The translations under genes were made by a program, and so were the position numbers. A stretch of DNA of 64,000 nucleotides from an uncultured delta proteobacterium (GTDB taxonomy: Bacteria > Desulfobacterota > Binatia > UBA9968): the NCBI GenBank assembly GCA_963771465.1, contig CAVYTU010000002.1, positions 32,001-96,000 of the forward strand, read 5' to 3'. The notes below the pieces were generated by a model. It worked only from the letters and a program-made list of their open reading frames with translations. It was not told the DNA's origin and searched no databases. This document shows positions 411 through 55,435 of the stretch, piece after piece (the first letter of the stretch is position 1; each line of letters opens with the position of its first letter).

Positions 411-1113
411 TCATATATCCAGCCCCGCGCCATGCTTCCTCAGCCACTCTTTGCGCTCTTCGTAATCCGGCATCATTTTGTCCACTTCGTTCCAGAAAGC
501 ATCGGTATGGTCGAGCTGATGCAAATGGCAAAGCTCATGGACAACGATGTAGTCGATAATCGTCGGTGGGGCCATCATGCATTTCCAGTGGAACGCCAAC
601 TTTCCACTTGGAGAACAAGACGCCCATCGATAGCCGAGTTCCCGGACGTCCATCCCGCGTCAGTTTAACGCCGACTTTCGGAGCGTAATATTTCACTCGC
701 TCTCGTGATCCGATCTTGTCCGCGTACAACGTAATAGTCGCGAAATGCCGCCTGGGCCGCCGCAACGTCGCCGCGGTCAACGAAATCACGTCGCAAGCAA
801 AAGCGACCATCTTTCAACTGCACCGGCGCTTCTTGGTCCGCGACCAGTAGAAGGCGATAGGAGCGACCAAGGTACAAAAATCCTTCACCGTTCCGGTATT
901 CTCGTAGAACGCGAGTCGCGTTGAGATCGCGCCACTCAGCCAGATTCTTGTAGATCCAATAGCGCTTCGCTTCGACAATGTCTTCGATGCGCTCGTCGGG
1001 GAATGTGGCCGGCGCGCGGACAACGATTTTGCCATTCCGCTCGACGACGATATCCGCCGTGGAGCGGCGGCTGCGCACGACTTCGTAGGAGATGTCTTTA
1101 TCGCGTGAGGCTT

Positions 1114-1117
<4 letters not shown>
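411..1117 (-). CDS. M48/YgjP (DUF45, SprT-like) zinc metalloprotease downstream of hsdR; frameshifted
   Basis: ORFs 665..1117 (SRRSTADIVVE...GEGFLYLGRSYRL) and 411..653 (RWASCS...IIDYIVVHELCHL...HTDAFW) together give the family with its HExxH motif. The start overlaps the hsdR stop. Confidence 0.85.
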
Positions 1118-4377
<3,260 letters not shown>

Positions 4378-4401
4378 GGGTCTGGCAGTGCAAGATTCGG
4401 A

Positions 4402-5669
4402 TTATTTTCGTTTTCCTGTTTTGCCTTTTGGTTTCTTGGAACTCTGCTTCCAGGGTGTCTTCGTCACCTCATCCAAATCCAAAGTCAGAGCAGTATCACC
4501 TCCATCGCCGATGGCGGCCACGGTGAAGAGTTCGTCAGGGTAAAACTCTTGCTCTGCGTACCAACTTAGCCCACTTTTGCGCTTCTTAACTTCCGCGAAA
4601 AGTTCATACGCGTCTTCCCCTTCATTTTCAAAGTCGGGGTAAGTTATGAAGGTAACAAATCGGCCACGCGGCGGCGGGCTCCCTTGGGTGCACTCATAAA
4701 ACACGTTGACGGTATAGTAATCCTCGTGCTCCCTGACCGTCGCCGTAAGGCGTCGATGACCGTTATCATCTAATATGCCAAAAAGTTCCTTGTTCGGATC
4801 GTCAAGCTCGTAGTCGTGAATCACCGGGCGATCGCCCGGCGGAATTCGAAACCGCACGGGAAACTCGGGATAAAATTCGCAGAGTCGTCGGCTCGGAATG
4901 CACCACGAAATATGATCTTTCGACAATTCTAGAACCACCAACCCGATAAACGCATTCAAGTCCGATGACCACACCGGCGCTCCACTAAACCCTCCCATCA
5001 CGGACAGCGCGCCGCCGCGATCCATCTGCACTAAGCCCTTGGCATTTGCGGCGTGGAGAAGTCCAGCAGCATTGCGTCCTTGCTGATCGCTTCCCGGAAA
5101 GCCCATTACGGAATAAGCCTTGCCGCCATGCCTCAAAGGACTGGCGAACGACACCGGTTGAATGCTAACGAAAGACAAAGGGTTTAGAATCTCCAGCAAC
5201 GCCAAATCATTTTCCGAGCCATCACGATCTTCGACTTTCATCACCTTGGTTCTTATCTTTGGCTGGCCAACGACACCAATAAGTGTTACGTCCAGCTCTT
5301 TGCCAAGAGGCGTTACTTCCTCGTCGGGATTTTCCTTTTCCAACGCATTGGCAACGACGTGACGACAAGTCAGGATGTGTCGGTGATTGAGCAAACAGGC
5401 TGCTCCAAGAATTTGGCCGTCGAACCGATGCACGGCCACAACGCGAGCCGTCTCTGATCCGTTACGCGCAGGCTTAGCGGCGGTACTTGGTTTGCTTCGA
5501 ATGATTTTGTGGGATCGTATTTGAACGATCCCGGCACATAGACTGTTTCAGGGTAGACAACGCGCGAAGTTGAAGAGGTGTCAGCCGCCTCAAGCATTTT
5601 AGTCGGGTCAGGACGGTTCTCCGGCTCCAGTGCCGGCTTTGGCTTCTTAGTATGAGTCGGTTCTTTCAT
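4402..5669 (-). CDS. Trypsin-like serine protease with N-terminal extension and pYEATS-like C-terminal domain; one frameshift near 5455
   Basis: Triad motifs LTCRHVV, NDLALLE and GFSGAPV. ORF 5370..5669 joins ORF 4402..5439 if one base is added (RVTD-PETARVVAVHRFDGQILGA). No signal peptide. Confidence 0.85.
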
Positions 5670-5998
5670 TACTTCGTCTTTTTGTCGTTAGCCCATTTGA
5701 GAGTGATCTTGAAGTTGGCCTTTGCCGAGCCTTCCATGATCATGGGGATACCTCCCTCACCACCCAACTCGAGCCCGAATTCCACTTCTATTTCTGAAGG
5801 ATTGTTGGCAGCAATCAAGGCGTTGCGAATCGTGTCGGCCACGGCGGACAGCGGCTCGAGCTGTTCTCCGAGTTCTTTAGCAACCTTGCGAACAATGTCC
5901 CTCGACGCGTTGCGCGGTATACCTTGATCGTCAGAAGACTCGACTAGAATGAAGTGTTCCTTTTTCTCGGACTTTACCTTGTATGCGACTGTAGCCAT
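5669..5998 (-). CDS. Trypco1 / CU044_2847-family small protein (trypsin co-occurring domain)
   Basis: 109 aa from ATG 5998 with an AAGGAG RBS. Motif PSEIEVEFGLELGGEGG...GSAKANFKITLKW. Stop/start overlap (TAATG) with the trypsin gene. Confidence 0.8.
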   Translation of the reverse strand: MATVAYKVKSEKKEHFILVESSDDQGIPRNASRDIVRKVAKELGEQLEPLSAVADTIRNALIAANNPSEIEVEFGLELGGEGGIPMIMEGSAKANFKITLKWANDKKTK

Positions 5999-6026
5999 AA
6001 AGCTCCTTTTGTTAATGGGTGTTTGT

Positions 6027-6197
6027 TTATAGACTTCCGCTGCGCGCCGCCTGCACCATCTGGTCATGCGTCCGCTACCGCTTGTCCAGGAACCGATCGC
6101 AGAATACGTCAGTGCCGTCGTAGATTATCTCCGTCACCTGATACGACTGCAGCCGATAACCGCCGTGCAGCCGCGACGTGGCGTTGTCGCCGCTCAT
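6027..6197 (-). pseudogene. Truncated four-helix-bundle (23S rRNA IVP/Avd-like, four helix bundle suffix family) gene remnant
   Basis: The ATG overlaps the hsdS TGA. Translates MSGDNATSRLHGGYRLQSYQVTEIIYDGTDVFCDRFLDKR*RTHDQMVQAARSG then loses similarity. In-frame TAG at 6075-6077. Confidence 0.7.
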
Positions 6198-7477
6198 CAC
6201 CCGTCCACCTTCACTCGCCCGGTCAGGAGGTCGTGCATGAGGCCGTGTTTTTGTTGGCGGAGTTTAGCGACTTGACGGTTCAGTGAATCAGAATATTTGT
6301 TGAGCACACCGATTCGAGCCTCAATTTCTTGCTGCTCCTCGTGGTTGGGCAGCGCTAATGGAAACCCTTTTAGCTGAGTGGAGTTAATTGAGGCGAGGTT
6401 GGTGGACTGCTTCGAACTCATCACAAAGTATTTTTTTCCGAATTCCGACTGAGACCAATACGCCAAGTAGTTCGATTGGAGCCGACTTGAGTGAGAACGA
6501 ACTCGGAAGACGTGGTTTTGATGGATGCATGGAGTATATCTCTTCGTTCCAAACCGTTCCACGTCCAAGTTTGTCGTAATCGCCCCCTTCGTTCATTAGA
6601 ACATCTCCACGTTTCAGACACAGTTTTTCGAGTTGGTCAAAAGACACTCGAATTGTCTTGATCTCATGCAGGTCAAGATAACCATCTTGCACGTTAGCGA
6701 CTCGAAGATATGGAATTTCTATGCCGAATTTTATCTCGGCTTCTGAACCGAGGGTTACCCCAGAAACAATCTCCGCGAGTGTACCCAACTGCTGTATCTG
6801 CCACTCCTTCGGAATCCAGCCGAGGGGGGATTCTTTGTAGAGTTGCGGCGCTTCGGCGCGGGTGGGGCGGAGTTTGCCGTCAGGCGTGACGCCGCGGGTA
6901 AACAGGTCGTGCATCAGCCCCGCCTTGATCTGCTGATACTTCGCAATCAGCGCCTCCGTCTGCTCAATCGAGCGTCTAGTATCAAGGATATCGGCGATAC
7001 CTTGTTGAACTTCGAGTTTGGAGTGGAAACCTGAGAACGCTCGAAAACGTTCTGATAAAGATGCATCCATTGTTGAGCCCGCCAAATTCAGATTCAGAAA
7101 TTCATCGAACACACTCGACCGAAGTAAGAAGATACAGAAACCGGTGAGTTACACCTTCCGTCCGCGCAGCGAAGTAAGAACACGCCACTAATAAGAACCA
7201 GCGTTCTCAGGGCAATCTGTACACAAAGGCACTTTGCCGATTAGTTCCGTCCACGGAGTGAACAGAGATCGCCGTTGCGGACATGAATGTATGCGCCTGT
7301 CTTGAAATCTTGCTTCGGTGACGTGGTAAAGGAATCCCAGTCAATGCTTCCATTCCGAAAGTCTTGCCAGTGATAAGATGGGGACCGTCGATCGAGAAAT
7401 CGTCGGCGTGCAACTGTGCCAAGGCCAGTTCTGCAATTAACCGCCACTGACGAACTTTGATGGGCGTCTGAGGCCAT
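6197..7477 (-). CDS. hsdS: Type I R-M specificity subunit; frameshifted
   Basis: Two TRDs with conserved spacer IAKYQQIKAGLMHDLFTRG...YKESPLGWIPKEW and C-terminal KHGLMHDLLTGRVKV; YLRVANVQDGYLDL. Confidence 0.9.
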
Positions 7478-7505
7478 TACTCTTGGTGACTTGACACAAA
7501 CTCAC

Positions 7506-9977
<2,472 letters not shown>

Positions 9978-10096
9978 CAAGAAAACCGAATCGAATTTCT
10001 AATAGTAAATTGTTGCAGATTCTACGCGAAACCGTGCGCGCATGCCAAGTGTTCAACAGTTCAATATTCCATCGTTCCAAACGTTCAGCCACTTCC

Positions 10097-31469: not shown

Positions 31470-32441
31470 ATGAAAACGGGTGCGCCGCTATTTGCTCTTT
31501 TGCTGTTGGTTATTCTCACTTCCCACGCGCGCGGGCAATCGGCGCCGGAAAAAATCGTCATCACCTACCCGAGCCGTAGCATCGCTTCGGTTGATTTATA
31601 TATCGCCCAAGAACGCGGCTTTTTCCGCCAAGAAGGGCTGATCGCGGATGTGGTGCAAGTACGCGGCAACATCGGCGTCACGGCACTGCTCAGCGGCGAT
31701 GCGCACGCGATCAACAACGTCGGCACGCTGGTTCGCGCCATGGAGCGCAGCGATCTCCCCGCCAAAGTCGTTTCCCAAAGCCTTAGAAAAAATTTGTTCT
31801 GGTTGGTCACCAAACCGGACATCAAAAGCATCATGGAACTCAAGGGAAAAACTTTCGGCACCACGACTTTGGGTGGCTCGCAACACATGGCGGCAGTGCG
31901 CTTTTTACAGAAAGCCGGTCTCGACCCGGACAAGGACATCACGGTTCTAATCGGCGGCGATGTTCCAGCGCAGCTCCAGAGCCTGGTAAGCGGCGTGATC
32001 CAACTGGCCGCATTATCGCCGCCGACGGTTATCATTGCACGCGACAAGTTCAAGTTGAGAATTCACGGCAGCACCCTCGATGATTTACCTAGTTTACAGA
32101 ATGGCCTGGCATTTTCAGAAAGGCTCCTACGCGAGCGGCGCGACTTGGCCAAACGGATTGTCCGTGCCCGCTCCCGCGCGCATCGTTATCTATGGGAGAA
32201 CGAACGCGGCACGGCCGAAGTTTTAGCGAAGTATTTGAATGTGGAAATGGCGGTGGCGCTCGAATCCTATCGGCTCGCCCGCCCGGCGTTCACCACCAAC
32301 GGCCTCGCCAGCGACAAGGAAGTCGAAGACTTTCTCCGCGCCGACGCAGAGGTTTTGAAACTCAAGGAGCCGGTGCCGGCGGCCAAGATATTCGATTTCA
32401 GTTTGCAGCGCGAAGTGAATCAAGAGTTGGGCATCAAGTAG
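31470..32441 (+). CDS. ABC-type substrate-binding protein (NMT1/THI5/SsuA-like)
   Basis: Signal peptide, LYIAQERGFFRQEGL, ELKGKTFG and GLDPDKDI. Confidence 0.85.
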   Translation: MKTGAPLFALLLLVILTSHARGQSAPEKIVITYPSRSIASVDLYIAQERGFFRQEGLIADVVQVRGNIGVTALLSGDAHAINNVGTLVRAMERSDLPAKVVSQSLRKNLFWLVTKPDIKSIMELKGKTFGTTTLGGSQHMAAVRFLQKAGLDPDKDITVLIGGDVPAQLQSLVSGVIQLAALSPPTVIIARDKFKLRIHGSTLDDLPSLQNGLAFSERLLRERRDLAKRIVRARSRAHRYLWENERGTAEVLAKYLNVEMAVALESYRLARPAFTTNGLASDKEVEDFLRADAEVLKLKEPVPAAKIFDFSLQREVNQELGIK

Positions 32442-32482
32442 TCACACGCATCATCAGCAAACTCCCGAGGAGGCTATCTATC

Positions 32483-33434
32483 ATGAACATACTCATCACC
32501 GGCGCGGGATTGATCGGCACCCATGCGGCGCGGCAAATGGTCGACGCTGGACACAAAGTCGTGCTCTTCGATCTGTCGCCGAATCGGGACTACATCGGCA
32601 AAGTGGTCGGCAAAGACAAAGCCGATGTCGTCGCCGCCAACATGCTCGACTTGCCGGCGCTCTTGAGCGCGCTGGAAAGATTCGACGTCGACACCATGGT
32701 TCACACCGCGGGGTTGATCGGCGGGCGGGTACAAGAAAATTCGTACACCGGTGCGACGAATAATATTCTCGGCACTATCAACATCCTCGAAGCAGCGCGC
32801 TTGCGAAAACTGCGCCGGGTCGTCTACGTCAGCACGTTCGGCGTCTATGAGCGCGGCAAAATCACCGACGGCGTCGTCAAAGAAACCCATGCCATCGGCG
32901 GCCACAATCTCTACGCCACCACCAAAGTTTGCTCCGAACATTTGGTCCACGCCTACACCAGCATGTACAACCTCGACACCATCATCATCCGTCCCGGCGG
33001 CGTCTTTGGCCGTGGCTTTTACGTCGGCGGCTCGACGGTGGGAAAGATAATGCGCGATCTGGCGTTAGCGATGATCAAAGGCGAGCCGATCACGATCGAC
33101 GCAAAAACCTACGGCCCCAACGAATATGTCTACGGCAAAGATGTCGGCTTGGCGCTCTTCCTCGCCTGTCAAGCGCAGAATCCAAAGCAACGCATTTACA
33201 ACGCCGGCACTGGCGTCGTGCACGGCGCCGAAGAGTTGGCCCAAGTCGTCCGCGACGTCGCGCCGAAAATTAGAAGTCAAAGTCAGCGGTTCAACCACCG
33301 CGGATAAAAGCCGAAATATCCCGATGGACATCAGCGTTGCCAAAGCGGAGTTAGGCTACGCGCCAAAATTTCCGCTGAAAGATGCGCTGCGGGATTACAT
33401 GGACGAGTTATGGAACGAGGGCGCGAGAAGTTAG
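32483..33434 (+). CDS. NAD-dependent epimerase/dehydratase; frameshift near 33270
   Basis: ILITGAGLIG, YATTK (YxxxK) and C-terminal MDISVAKAELGYAP in a shifted frame. Confidence 0.85.
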
Positions 33435-38245: not shown

Positions 38246-39737
38246 TTATTCCGCGTTATCAATCTGCGCCTTCTGCAGCTTGCCCGAATAGTCGACGTAA
38301 ATTGATTTCCACTCGGTAAAGATATCGTACACGGTCGTGCCCGCTTCGCGGTGGCCGTTGCCGGTGTCTTTGACGCCGCCGAAAGGTAGATGCACCTCGG
38401 CGCCGATGGTCGGGCCGTTGATATAAGTAATGCCGGCTTCGATATCCCGCATGGCGCGAAACGCCCGCGTCACATCGTTGGTGTAAATCGAACTAGACAA
38501 CCCATACGCCGTGCCGTTGAGTACGTTGATCGCTTCCTCGAAGCTGGAGATTTCAATAATCGACAGCACCGGCCCGAAAATCTCTTCCTGCGCGATACGC
38601 ATATGGGGCTTCACCTGATCGAAAATCGTCGGTTGGAAAAAGTAGCCATTGGCGCAATCGCCTGAATCGTAAATTGCCCCGCCGGTGCGTAGCCGCGCGC
38701 CTTCTTGGGCGCCGATCTCGATGTAGCGCATCACTTTCTCCCGCGCAGTCTGATTGATCAGCGGCCCCATCTCAACGCTTTCGTCGAGACCGTCGCCAAT
38801 TTTTATTTTCTGCGCCCGCTCGACCAGCGCGTCGGTTACCTTTTTTGCGACATCGCGATGGACGATCAAACGGCTGGTCGCCGTGCAGCGTTGCCCCGTC
38901 GTGCCGAAGGCGCCCCACAGCGCGCCTTCGATGGCGAGATCGAGATCGGCGTCTTCCATGACGATCTGCGCGTTTTTACCGCCGAGCTCCAGCGAGACGC
39001 GTTTGAGATTTTGGCCGCAAGCCGAAGCGATCTCACGCCCAACCGCGGCGGAGCCGGTGAAGGAAACCAACTGCACATGCTTATGGCGCACCAGCGCGGC
39101 ACCGACTTCTTCGCCGCGGCCATGAATCAAATTGACCACGCCTGGCGGCACGCCGGCTTCGGTGAGAATTTCGACGAATCGGGTCGCGGTGTGCGGCGTA
39201 TCTTCCGCCGGTTTGAGTATCACCGTGTTGCCGCAGATCAGCGCGGGAAACGAATTTCCAGGTCGGAATCGCCAGCGGAAAGTTCCACGGCGTGATCAGC
39301 GCGCACACGCCGATCGGCGTGCGCACCGACATGGCGAATTTGTTGGGCATCTCCGCCGGTGTGGTCTCACCAAACAGCCGGCGTCCTTCGCCGGCGTTGA
39401 GAAACGCGCAGTCGATCCCTTCTTGGACATCGCCGCGGGTTTCCTTCAACACCTTGCCCATCTCGCGGGTCTCGATGCGCGCCAGTTCTTCTTTGTTTTT
39501 TTTCAACAGCTCGCCGACGCGGTAGAGAATCTCGCCCCGTTTGGGTGCCGGCACCAAACGCCAGGAAGCAAAGGCTTTCGTCGCAGCCTGTACTGCCGCG
39601 TCGACATCGGCAACGCTCGAAGCGGGGAACGAACCGATCAGATCGTCGCGCTTGGCTGGATTGCGGTTCTCAAAAGTCTTTTCCGACTTGGCTGCTAGCC
39701 ATTGACCGTCGATGTAATTGAAAAATTTTTGCGCCAT
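38246..39737 (-). CDS. Aldehyde dehydrogenase; frameshift near 39250
   Basis: [26 protein letters not shown] and EEIFGPV. Confidence 0.93.
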
Positions 39738-39874
39738 AATCATTCTCCCGGCCGATTTCCCATCCGACCAGTTAACCTGCTCCGCCACGGCAATTGTAGG
39801 TGTCTCACGCGCCGAACACAACGTTAATGTGCCGATAAGCAAACAACCAAGCGACCCCGGATGGCGCTCCGCTT

Positions 39875-53754: not shown

Positions 53755-54614
53755 ATGGAACATTCACTATCTCAGCCACCGTCAAGCGCGCTTCCAGCGA
53801 CGCCCTTAACCCTCGACGGTGCCTACCTCCTGCACCAAATGTTTCGCGTTCGCTGGTCGGCCTGGAAAGGGCTCGGCAGACCGAGCAGAAACATATTTTA
53901 GCCAACGCGACGGCGCTATTCGGCGCCATGGAGCAGAACAAGCCCGAGCCGACCGGGCTTTTCTCCCTGCTCGGCCATAAAGGCGATCTGATGCTCGTCC
54001 ACTTCCGCAAGAAGTTGGACGACCTCAACCATGCTGAACTTTCGCTCACCCAGTGCGAATTAAACGAATATCTCGAGCCGACCACTTCCTATCTCTCCGT
54101 GGTCGAGCTGGGAATCTACGAAGCTTCGGTGAAACTTTACGCGGAGCTGACTGCCAAAGGATGGCAACCCGGGACCGCGGATTGGAACAGCGCAGTCGAG
54201 GCTGAACTGGTTAAGCAGCGCGAAGGCGCGGCGCCGCGCCTGTGGCCGGAGATTCCGCAACGCCGCTATCTGTGTTTTTACCCGATGAACAAGTTTCGCG
54301 GTGAAGCGAAAAATTGGTACAGCGAACCCATCCGCGAACGCCAACGAATGATGCGCGAACACGGCATGATCGGCCGTCACTATGCCGGCAGAGTCACGCA
54401 AATCATTTCAGGTTCCATCGGCTTCGACGATTGGGAATGGGGCGTCGATCTATTTGCCGACGATCCGCTGGTATTCAAGAAACTCGTCTACGAAATGCGC
54501 TTCGACGAAGCCAGCGCGGTCTATGGCCTGTTCGGCACATTCTTCGTCGGCCTGCGCTTTCCGGTAAGCCAACTGGCCGTCTTGTTCGACGGCAAGACGC
54601 CGAGCTTCACTTAA
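53755..54614 (+). CDS. hemQ: Coproheme decarboxylase / heme-dependent peroxidase (chlorite-dismutase superfamily); frameshift near 53880
   Basis: N-terminal PLTLDGAYLLHQMFRVRW, YPMNK...NWY, MMREHGMIGR and GFDDWEWGV...FKKLVYEMRFDE. Confidence 0.8.
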
Positions 54615-54673
54615 TTTCTAATCAGCCATCGGCCAATTTCGAGATCCGCTCTGGTGCGGCGCGGAGGAGAACC

Positions 54674-55435
54674 ATGAGACTTAAGGATAAAGTCACCATC
54701 ATTACCGGCGCCGCCCACGGCATCGGCAAAGCTTACGCGCGCCGCTTCGCCGAAGAAGGCGCTCATGTGGTCATCGCCGATATCGATGGCGCCGGCGGCG
54801 CAGCGACCGCGAACGCAATTCTCGACGCCGGCGGGTCGGCCTGGTCGAGAACCAGCGACGTGCGCAGTCTGCCCAATGTCCAGGGACTCATGCAGGAGAC
54901 CGTAAATAAATTCGGCCGCATCGATGTCCTGCTCAACAACGCCGCGATCTATGTCACGCAAAAACTCTGGAAAGGTCCGGTCGAAGATTTGGAATTGGCC
55001 GAATGGGACCGCGTCATCGAAGTCAATTTAAAAGGCGTATTTCTGTGCAGCAAAGCCGCGATCCCGATCATGAAGCAACAAAAGAGCGGCAAGATTATCA
55101 ACATCGCGTCGGGGACGTTTTTTAGCGGCTCGGGCAACATGCCGCACTACACGACAGCTAAGGGTGGCGTGGTCGCGCTCACTCGCGTCATGGCGCGACA
55201 GCTCGGCGAGTTCGGTATCAACGTGAACTGCATGACTCCCGGCTCGACCATGAGCGAAGAAAACGTCTCGGAAGAAGTATTGAAACGGCGCGAAGGCAGC
55301 ATGGACAAGCGCGCCTTTAAACGCGTCGAGACGCCCGCCGACATCGTCGGCACGGCGGTTTTCTTGGCCAGCGCCGACAGCGACTTCGTCACCGGACAGC
55401 TGCTCGTCGTCGAAGGCGGCGGCATCATGCATTAG
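54674..55435 (+). CDS. Short-chain dehydrogenase/reductase
   Basis: ITGAAHGIG, LLNNAA, HYTTAKGG and DFVTGQ. Confidence 0.92.
   Translation: MRLKDKVTIITGAAHGIGKAYARRFAEEGAHVVIADIDGAGGAATANAILDAGGSAWSRTSDVRSLPNVQGLMQETVNKFGRIDVLLNNAAIYVTQKLWKGPVEDLELAEWDRVIEVNLKGVFLCSKAAIPIMKQQKSGKIINIASGTFFSGSGNMPHYTTAKGGVVALTRVMARQLGEFGINVNCMTPGSTMSEENVSEEVLKRREGSMDKRAFKRVETPADIVGTAVFLASADSDFVTGQLLVVEGGGIMH

Follow-up and report, generated by a model that had tools for sequence, protein, structure and literature searches.

Kaur et al. (2020; PMC7159879) introduced Trypco1 and Trypco2 as proteins obligately encoded beside trypsin-like peptidases in conflict systems, and the two were later renamed Pepco (Evans et al., 10.1101/2025.11.14.688446). 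SsPepco of Streptomyces subrutilus, which pairs with trypsin-Avs4, was reported to form 9-10-mer beta-barrels resistant to sodium dodecyl sulfate. The trypsin-like domain of Avs4 removes a C-terminal tail of ~2 kDa from SsPepco after Ile97, a conserved isoleucine, and the truncated SsPepco kills Escherichia coli, a toxicity that requires the catalytic serine (10.1101/2025.11.14.688446). Here, we describe a two-gene cassette in DNA of an uncultured delta proteobacterium (Desulfobacterota; Binatia; UBA9968), namely positions 32,001 to 96,000 of contig CAVYTU010000002.1 (assembly GCA_963771465.1), a stretch of 64,000 nucleotides (nt) that is called the window below. The cassette consists of a Trypco1 gene and a gene for a trypsin-like protease with a C-terminal pYEATS-type domain, and is located between the hsdS and hsdR genes of a Type I restriction-modification (R-M) operon.

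How does this cassette compare with described systems? As in the S. subrutilus pair, a small Trypco-family gene lies immediately 5' of the gene for a trypsin-like protease (10.1101/2025.11.14.688446). Two further traits are shared with Pepco-protease modules, namely a conserved Ile/Val ahead of a short charged C-terminal tail, and an extra non-catalytic domain on the protease as a possible input. Unlike in those modules, however, the candidate sensor is a pYEATS-type sandwich of ~150 amino acids (aa) instead of a STAND ATPase, an FGE or a peptidoglycan-binding domain, and no NTPase is present. The pair is a member of the Pepco-protease class, differing in its candidate sensor. The VMAP/iSTAND ternary systems (PMC7159879) also combine the Trypco1 family with a trypsin-like peptidase, whereas vWA, MoxR or STAND NTPase components are not among the genes adjacent to the present pair, both neighbours being hsdS and hsdR. 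In single-protein conflict systems containing pYEATS (PF20305 with SIR2_2, TIR_2, CHAT or YLATT), the pYEATS-type domain is likewise C-terminal to an effector or enzymatic domain, but the present one belongs to a divergent subclade missed by Pfam, and the enzyme is a protease needing a separate effector gene.

A second line of comparison concerns the location. Defence genes within Type I R-M operons have been discussed under the term 'guilt by embedding' (10.1101/2024.01.29.577857). PrrC of EcoprrI is likewise embedded between hsdS and hsdR, and the cassette resembles it in being probably co-transcribed with the operon. However, PrrC, an ABC-ATPase anticodon nuclease, is nearly confined to Type I R-M systems (10.1101/2024.01.29.577857), whereas most copies of the present pair are elsewhere. 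Independent defence genes embedded in Type I R-M operons have been documented in the case of TgvAB from Vibrio cholerae VPI-2, which acts independently of HsdR restriction (PMC11411939) and offers a better analogy for the pair than does PrrC. In the literature searched, no trypsin-pYEATS plus Trypco1 module was found to be described, whether within a Type I R-M operon or elsewhere, although supplementary tables of three key papers may list one. We consider it likely that the cassette is a two-gene, NTPase-free protease-effector module of abortive infection that travels as cargo in a Type I R-M operon, itself spread horizontally, where it occupies the slot between hsdS and hsdR. This reading builds on observed domain identities, the catalytic triad, the coupling of the two genes, their recurrence and their genomic contexts.

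The Trypco1 and protease genes

All genes of the region are on the minus strand, in the order hsdM, hsdS, a gap of 198 nt, Trypco1, protease, a gap of 24 nt, hsdR and a YgjP-like gene. The placement between hsdS and hsdR, already given in a preliminary description made from the sequence alone, was borne out by Pfam matches of the flanking genes. The features of the cassette are as follows.

6003-6008, minus strand: Shine-Dalgarno sequence AAGGAG, 4 nt 5' of the Trypco1 ATG (sequence reading)
5669-5998, minus strand: Trypco1/Pepco gene, intact, 109 aa (Pfam PF19493)
4402-5669, minus strand: protease gene, whole span including a frameshift (three-frame translation and homologs)
5458-5669, minus strand: 5' part of the protease gene, a variable and probably disordered N-terminal extension in a frame that differs from that of the gene's remainder (three-frame translation)
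5455-5457, minus strand: frameshift site (RVTDQ / ETARVV), one base missing relative to the intact homologs P0002, P0003, P0004, P0012 and P0017
4876-5439, minus strand: trypsin-like domain (S1, Trypsin_2; PF13365), modelled with a predicted local distance difference test score (pLDDT) of 83.7
4405-4875, minus strand: pYEATS-type beta-sandwich, a candidate sensor, with a lysine-rich tail (model, structural matches and profile search)

The product of the first gene matches PF19493 with an E value of 6.1e-20 (72.1 bits against a cut-off of 24.6; profile positions 9-97 of 98), in agreement with the earlier assignment to Trypco1, and the gene is present as a single copy in the window's genome. An alignment of 14 Trypco1 homologs revealed the conserved sequence EIEFGVELGG...AKANFK[IV]TLKW, followed by a short charged tail. 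In the window protein, Ile98 is located within the FK[IV]TLKW motif and precedes an 11-aa tail, TLKWANDKKTK, with five charged residues; the position of Ile98 is occupied by I or V in all 14 aligned homologs. By analogy with Ile97 of SsPepco (10.1101/2025.11.14.688446), Ile98 is the candidate site after which the protease may cleave Trypco1.

The stop codon of Trypco1 shares the sequence TAATG with an ATG at 5669. The preliminary description had proposed two coupled genes with ribosome-binding sites of their own; the TAATG overlap and the AAGGAG before Trypco1 stand, whereas the protease gene was found by sequence reading to lack a clear Shine-Dalgarno site, leaving it with the TAATG coupling only. 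The second gene had also been taken as one reading frame from the coupled ATG. In fact, this ATG opens an open reading frame (ORF) of 99 aa (5370-5669), in a frame other than that of the 345-aa protease ORF (4402-5439). The translation of 5458-5669 aligns colinearly with the first 72 residues of P0002, the closest intact homolog (422 aa, 86% identical), and the P0002 model has a pLDDT of <50 over most of residues 12-40. P0002 reads ...LSLRVTDQETARVVAVHRF... straight through, indicative of a 1-nt deletion in the window at ~5455-5457, and one added G at this site would restore ...GATCAGGAGACG.... The protease reading frame is thus interrupted relative to its homologs. Programmed frameshifting was rejected, since all of the homologs read through unbroken.

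The protease ORF matches Trypsin_2 (PF13365) with an E value of 3.9e-11 (44.3 bits; cut-off 27.6). The codons of the catalytic triad are at 5359-5361 (His27), 5206-5208 (Asp78) and 4984-4986 (Ser152), and the triad is invariant across the 17 protease homologs of alignment A1, consistent with the intact triad reported before. The N-terminus is hydrophilic, and no signal peptide was seen by eye, again as reported. Using PADLOC v2.0.0, which contains no Trypco1 model, weak protease-domain matches were obtained to LmuA (4e-6), RT-Protease_XI (3e-5), Avs1b (9e-4) and PDC-M35A (7e-3). A promoter and terminator scan of 4200-6400 yielded counts not above those of shuffled sequence. The gap of 24 nt to hsdR suggests that the cassette is probably co-transcribed with hsdR. 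The cassette had been described as visibly less GC-rich than hsdM and hsdR, and its GC content (0.49-0.55) is indeed below theirs (0.60-0.65). However, the contigs average 0.54-0.57, so the compositional outliers are hsdR and hsdM, not the cassette.

The protease belongs to a family with at least 156 relatives of similar length and 45-86% identity. Pattern scans located nine family loci in species genomes (L001-L009) and 23 in metagenome contigs (L036-L058), L045 being a duplicate of L004. Trypco1 is directly upstream of the protease in 15 of these 32 loci, and a broken copy in two fragments occupies this position in a 16th (L008). Other partners were also observed: a DUF900 alpha/beta-hydrolase with TCAD7 (L007), hydrolase ends that resemble by eye that of L007 (L047 and L056), a 150-aa protein (L042 and L049) and a 246-aa protein (L044). 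In five loci, upstream DNA is missing or too short for a judgement, and the upstream gene of five further loci is unassigned. This variety of partners is the modular protease-effector logic described in the Pepco study (10.1101/2025.11.14.688446). The window protease is closest to those of L001 and L036 (~68%), the Trypco1 proteins of which are only 37-39% identical to that of the window and have a long PPQFF N-terminus. The window Trypco1 is closest to those of L043 (54%) and L006 (50%), where the proteases are more distant. This incongruence suggests, at the level of sequence similarity, that effector and protease genes have been shuffled within the family.

The C-terminal domain and the proposed mechanism

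A model of the C-terminal domain alone is an eight-stranded beta-sandwich with a pLDDT of 89.1. A Foldseek search of the domain against the PDB returned no match at E<=0.001. Using the exhaustive aligner VIA-align, YEATS domains ranked first or close to it, with matches to YEATS2 (6lsd_A; Z 6.8, 92 aligned, root-mean-square deviation 3.0), ENL (Z 6.6) and YEATS4/GAS41 (Z 6.5), and to Yaf9, YAF9A and Sas5 at Z 5.5-5.8. A profile of 23 domains of this clade, searched against 1.84 billion representative proteins, yielded 277 matches at E<=0.001; the protease family itself accounts for 21 representative clusters at E<=1e-30. Below this core family, profile positions ~23-138 match the C-terminal domains of other proteins, with E values from 4.6e-11 to 6e-5. 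Among the 117 listed non-core matches, 104 were scanned (the 13 left out being 11 proteins of <=148 aa, P0252 and P0254), and PF20305 was detected at E<=0.001 in 100 of the 104. Domains co-occurring in the scanned pYEATS proteins were SIR2_2 (13), YLATT (5), TIR_2 (3), SLOG cluster 4 (3) and CHAT (1). The consensus of the clade and that of the pYEATS proteins both show DDPxxxxFG, VxFxxxPxF and FTVxAxxDxGxT. Since the profile retrieves almost only pYEATS proteins, the C-terminal domain of the protease is, judged by these matches, a divergent pYEATS subclade missed by the Pfam model, which matches one of the 23 clade members (E 0.022). The earlier assignment of an extra C-terminal pYEATS domain is therefore upheld by the clade profile, with the direct Pfam model giving no match. 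The window's genome contains one copy of the domain of this clade, and none was found among 400 other sampled genomes of its phylum.

Ligand binding has been ascribed to pYEATS in conflict systems (10.64898/2026.10.19.760177); a literature search on pYEATS and prokaryotic YEATS turned up a single passing mention. Because pYEATS elsewhere follows SIR2, TIR, CHAT and similar effector domains, it is, by analogy with these proteins, the probable input domain that licenses the protease on infection.

We infer from these features a mechanism in which the cleavage site, the pore, the sensor role of pYEATS and the independence from R-M are the extrapolated parts. By analogy with SsPepco, Trypco1 would be a latent effector, pre-assembled into a beta-barrel. 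The cytoplasmic trypsin-like protease (His27/Asp78/Ser152) would stay inactive as long as its pYEATS domain encounters no signal of infection. Once licensed, the protease would clip the charged C-terminal tail from the Trypco1 barrels, most likely after Ile98, and the tail-less barrels would permeabilise the membrane, aborting the infection. Judging from the gene content, this two-gene form would operate with no NTPase involved. The module is most likely self-sufficient; its presence in the hsd operon may reflect a cargo hot spot and co-transfer or co-expression with R-M, not the sensing of the R-M complex. The idea in the preliminary description of a sensor-protease pair that arrests or kills the cell by cleaving Trypco1 fits the mechanism reported for Pepco-protease modules (10.1101/2025.11.14.688446), and may by analogy apply here.

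State of the operon in the window

Is the cassette functional in this organism? The genes around it were compared by tblastn with the intact proteins of L002, a locus in a Burkholderiales metagenome-assembled genome (MAG), and by Pfam.

7505-9980, minus strand: hsdM, at least five frame changes (HsdM_N, N6_Mtase; tblastn with L002 HsdM)
6197-7112, minus strand: hsdS, two overlapping ORF pieces with at least one frame change (Methylase_S on 6197-6568; tblastn with L002 HsdS)
1114-4377, minus strand: hsdR, at least six frame changes (HSDR_N, SWI2_SNF2, T1R_D3; tblastn with intact L002 HsdR)
411-1117, minus strand: YgjP-like metallopeptidase gene, 3' of hsdR, two frame changes (PF01863)

In total, at least 14 single-base frame changes are distributed over hsdM, hsdS, hsdR and the YgjP-like gene (window 411-9980). 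These frame breaks of the whole hsd operon, like that of the protease gene, had been overlooked in the preliminary description. The YgjP-like gene keeps the same position in L002 and L006, and the similarity of the operon pieces to those of a Burkholderiales MAG points to this hsd family having recently spread by horizontal transfer between phyla.

One explanation is pseudogene decay of the cassette together with the hsd operon around it, neither having a role in this organism. Besides the one frameshift in the protease gene and the at least 14 in its neighbours, this explanation draws on a comparison with four of 11 public short-read runs, each of the 11 holding only 5-8% of the sampled words. 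Related short-read contigs were found to have exactly one base fewer at 1359, 2090, 3051 and 3635 (hsdR) and at 8385 (hsdM), all of which are frame junctions; the indels at these five junctions are thus peculiar to the window sequence. A truly degraded copy also exists elsewhere. In L008 (9476-11069, from a MAG of the Acidobacteriota), Trypco1 is broken in two, the protease is split into two overlapping ORFs, and a gene for an IS110-family transposase is located 1 kb downstream.

The form of the disruptions argues against such decay. Every one of them is a 1-nt indel, stop codons are absent from the correctly framed high-scoring segment pairs, and the identity of the pieces to the intact L002 proteins remains at 72-88%, a pattern unlike neutral decay. 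Moreover, 854 same-strand out-of-frame overlaps of coding-like ORFs were counted genome-wide, or 1.24 per 10 kb by this crude index, and others are present in the window. Long same-strand ORF pairs that overlap out of frame, and so resemble frameshifted genes, were observed at 31470-33307, 38246-39842 and 53928-55435. Considering the many frameshifts in the operon and the ORF overlaps across the genome, an indel-prone assembly is a more likely cause of the frame breaks than real decay. Two short-read contigs (X5 record 29 and X3 record 21) match parts of the protease gene almost exactly, and the frameshift site itself had no usable cover in the four runs compared. Because of its 1-nt frameshift, the window copy of the protease gene is either mis-assembled or inactive. 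Overall, we regard a dead remnant as unlikely, though a serious contender.

Alternative roles and the hsdS-hsdR slot

A different assignment of the pYEATS domain would make it a scaffold or oligomerisation domain rather than a sensor, the protease being activated by a partner in trans or by general stress. Candidate partners would be paralogs in which a protease-like domain and pYEATS are fused to a KAP NTPase. Such fusions recur (L006:6035-9445 and P0121-P0126; 1118-1441 aa, with a P-loop NTPase of the KAP family). By eye, the catalytic His and Ser are gone in six of the seven, P0123 retaining both, suggesting a further use of the protease-pYEATS unit as an interaction module. In the hsd operon of L006, the KAP fusion is directly upstream of an active-looking Trypco1-protease pair. 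The linker before the sandwich, VRFRIPPxDRPxIHDYxxDDPN, is also nearly invariant, as might be expected of an interface. However, a KAP NTPase gene is not near most of the loci, including that of the window, where the search for it covered the locus and not the rest of the genome. The whole genome contains one Trypco1 gene and one domain of the clade, and pYEATS is described as ligand-binding in conflict systems (10.64898/2026.10.19.760177). We consider a scaffold role for pYEATS, with activation from elsewhere, rather improbable.

The relation of the pair to R-M was judged from its contexts. Seventeen loci including the window were annotated, using 40 neighbouring proteins from 16 loci; for L007, the upstream partner gene alone was scanned.

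L002 (Burkholderiales MAG): hsdM-hsdS-Trypco1-protease-hsdR-YgjP, all intact
L006 (Verrucomicrobiaceae MAG): same slot and same hsd family, with the KAP-NTPase fusion, a DUF4357 protein and an AbiE pair
L041: pair between an SNF2 helicase and an Eco57I-like methylase
Other defence-type or mobile neighbours: L003 (Uma2), L004 (RadC), L008 (IS110), L038 (STAND-WD40, 23S-IVP) and L040 (patatin, serine recombinase)
Housekeeping-type neighbours only: L001, L005, L036, L037, L039, L043 and L046

Three of the 17 loci (window, L002 and L006) are thus located in Type I hsd operons, each between hsdS and hsdR, and at least seven of the 17 have housekeeping neighbours only. In L041 (2388-10139), the reading frames of the pair overlap or abut a gene for an SNF2-type helicase of 956 aa and one for a methylase of >1145 aa (Eco57I-like, N6_Mtase), an arrangement that resembles a DISARM-like or other helicase-methylase defence operon.

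The slot itself was surveyed in 12 hsd operons with HsdR homologs (L085-L096), obtained from 13 other matching genomes among 401 of the phylum. In five of these operons the slot is empty, with hsdS abutting hsdR, and in seven it carries cargo. By Pfam, the cargo in five cases is GmrSD_N, AbiEi/AbiEii, Fic, Schlafen-AlbA_2 with Fic-like_C, and a 23S-IVP protein with a Zn-ribbon; the other two slots hold a 1106-aa protein with no Pfam match, and HerA-like and IS200-like genes. The Trypco1-protease pair was found in none of these 12 operons of the window's phylum. The simplest reading is that the hsdS-hsdR slot of this hsd family is a cargo hot spot. In L096, a YhcG PD-(D/E)xK gene was observed between hsdM and hsdS.

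A quick maximum-likelihood tree of the proteases, with branch support from the Shimodaira-Hasegawa-like approximate likelihood ratio test (SH-aLRT) only, places the window in a clade (support 99*) with P0002, L036, P0003, L001 and P0012, of which L001 and L036 are outside hsd operons. L002 groups with L039, and L006 belongs to the other main clade. The proteases of the three hsd operons thus fall on separate branches, so that, on this tree, the hsd slot was entered or left on more than one occasion. When the window is compared with L002, identity is 72-88% for the HsdR and HsdM pieces, 62% for the protease and 43% for Trypco1.

One bolder reading gives the location a function. By analogy with the reading of acyl-lysine by eukaryotic YEATS domains, pYEATS might read an infection-specific protein mark or small ligand and directly license a protease that opens a pre-assembled pore, as a minimal NTPase-free immune switch. 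The repeated, independent capture of the pair by the hsdS-hsdR slot of one widely transferred Type I R-M family would then serve as a functional back-up of restriction when phages escape or disable R-M, rather than being hitch-hiking. We give this reading a slim chance.

The preliminary description had gone further, proposing that the pair stands guard over the R-M complex as PrrC does over EcoprrI, to be triggered by phage inhibition or modification of HsdMSR. Such guards exist, namely PrrC and PARIS (PMC12707154). The pair is embedded in the PrrC-type position in three operons of one hsd family, its protease gene ends 24 nt from hsdR, and the fourth restriction-type copy, L041, is between a helicase and a methylase. 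The recurrence in hsd operons that was to be looked for is thus present in part, with three of 17 loci in the same slot and four of 17 in restriction-type surroundings, above chance, but most loci are elsewhere. Indeed, 13 of the 17 have no R-M gene within 8-10 kb on either side, seven of these being the loci with housekeeping neighbours only, and the 12 related operons lack the pair, with unrelated, independently acting cargo in the slot of seven. Unlike PrrC, the family is therefore far from exclusive to Type I R-M. The hsd-embedded copies are scattered over the tree, the lower identity of the protease and Trypco1 than of HsdR and HsdM is not the pattern of co-evolving partners, and pYEATS also follows SIR2, TIR and CHAT in proteins with no stated link to R-M. 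By this family-wide association, a PrrC-type guard is not supported, and we consider it improbable.

Several points weigh against the preferred reading, that of a self-sufficient protease-effector module carried as cargo. Regarding the domain, Pfam pYEATS PF20305 gave no match to the window domain at E<=1 or at E<=10, and hhalign of the 23-domain alignment (A2) with seven pYEATS segments gave a probability of 3.4%, a weak result that was superseded by the profile search as the test for pYEATS. The YEATS matches at Z 6.5-6.8 are level with those to generic Ig-like folds in VIA-align. Regarding the effector, the tail of the window Trypco1 is 11 aa, compared with ~20 aa in SsPepco, and SsPepco could be Trypco1 or Trypco2. 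The clade is known from sequence alone, the protease is frame-broken in the window, and the seven KAP fusions hint that some versions need an NTPase partner. Finally, three of 17 loci in one hsd slot, together with L041 in a helicase/methylase system, amount to placement well above chance, so a looser functional tie to restriction may exist.

What would such a module mean for bacterial immunity? Recent work has established protease-gated effectors (Pepco, EACC1, MBL and alpha/beta-hydrolase) as a major logic in bacterial immunity, and the tested cases all use a large NTPase or another elaborate sensor. In the present clade, the system is reduced to a protease and one beta-sandwich of ~150 aa, and may thus offer the simplest setting for studying the licensing of immune proteases, as well as the ligands of prokaryotic YEATS-like domains. 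In addition, a proposed protease-pore module joins the cargo types known from the slot between hsdS and hsdR in Type I R-M operons.

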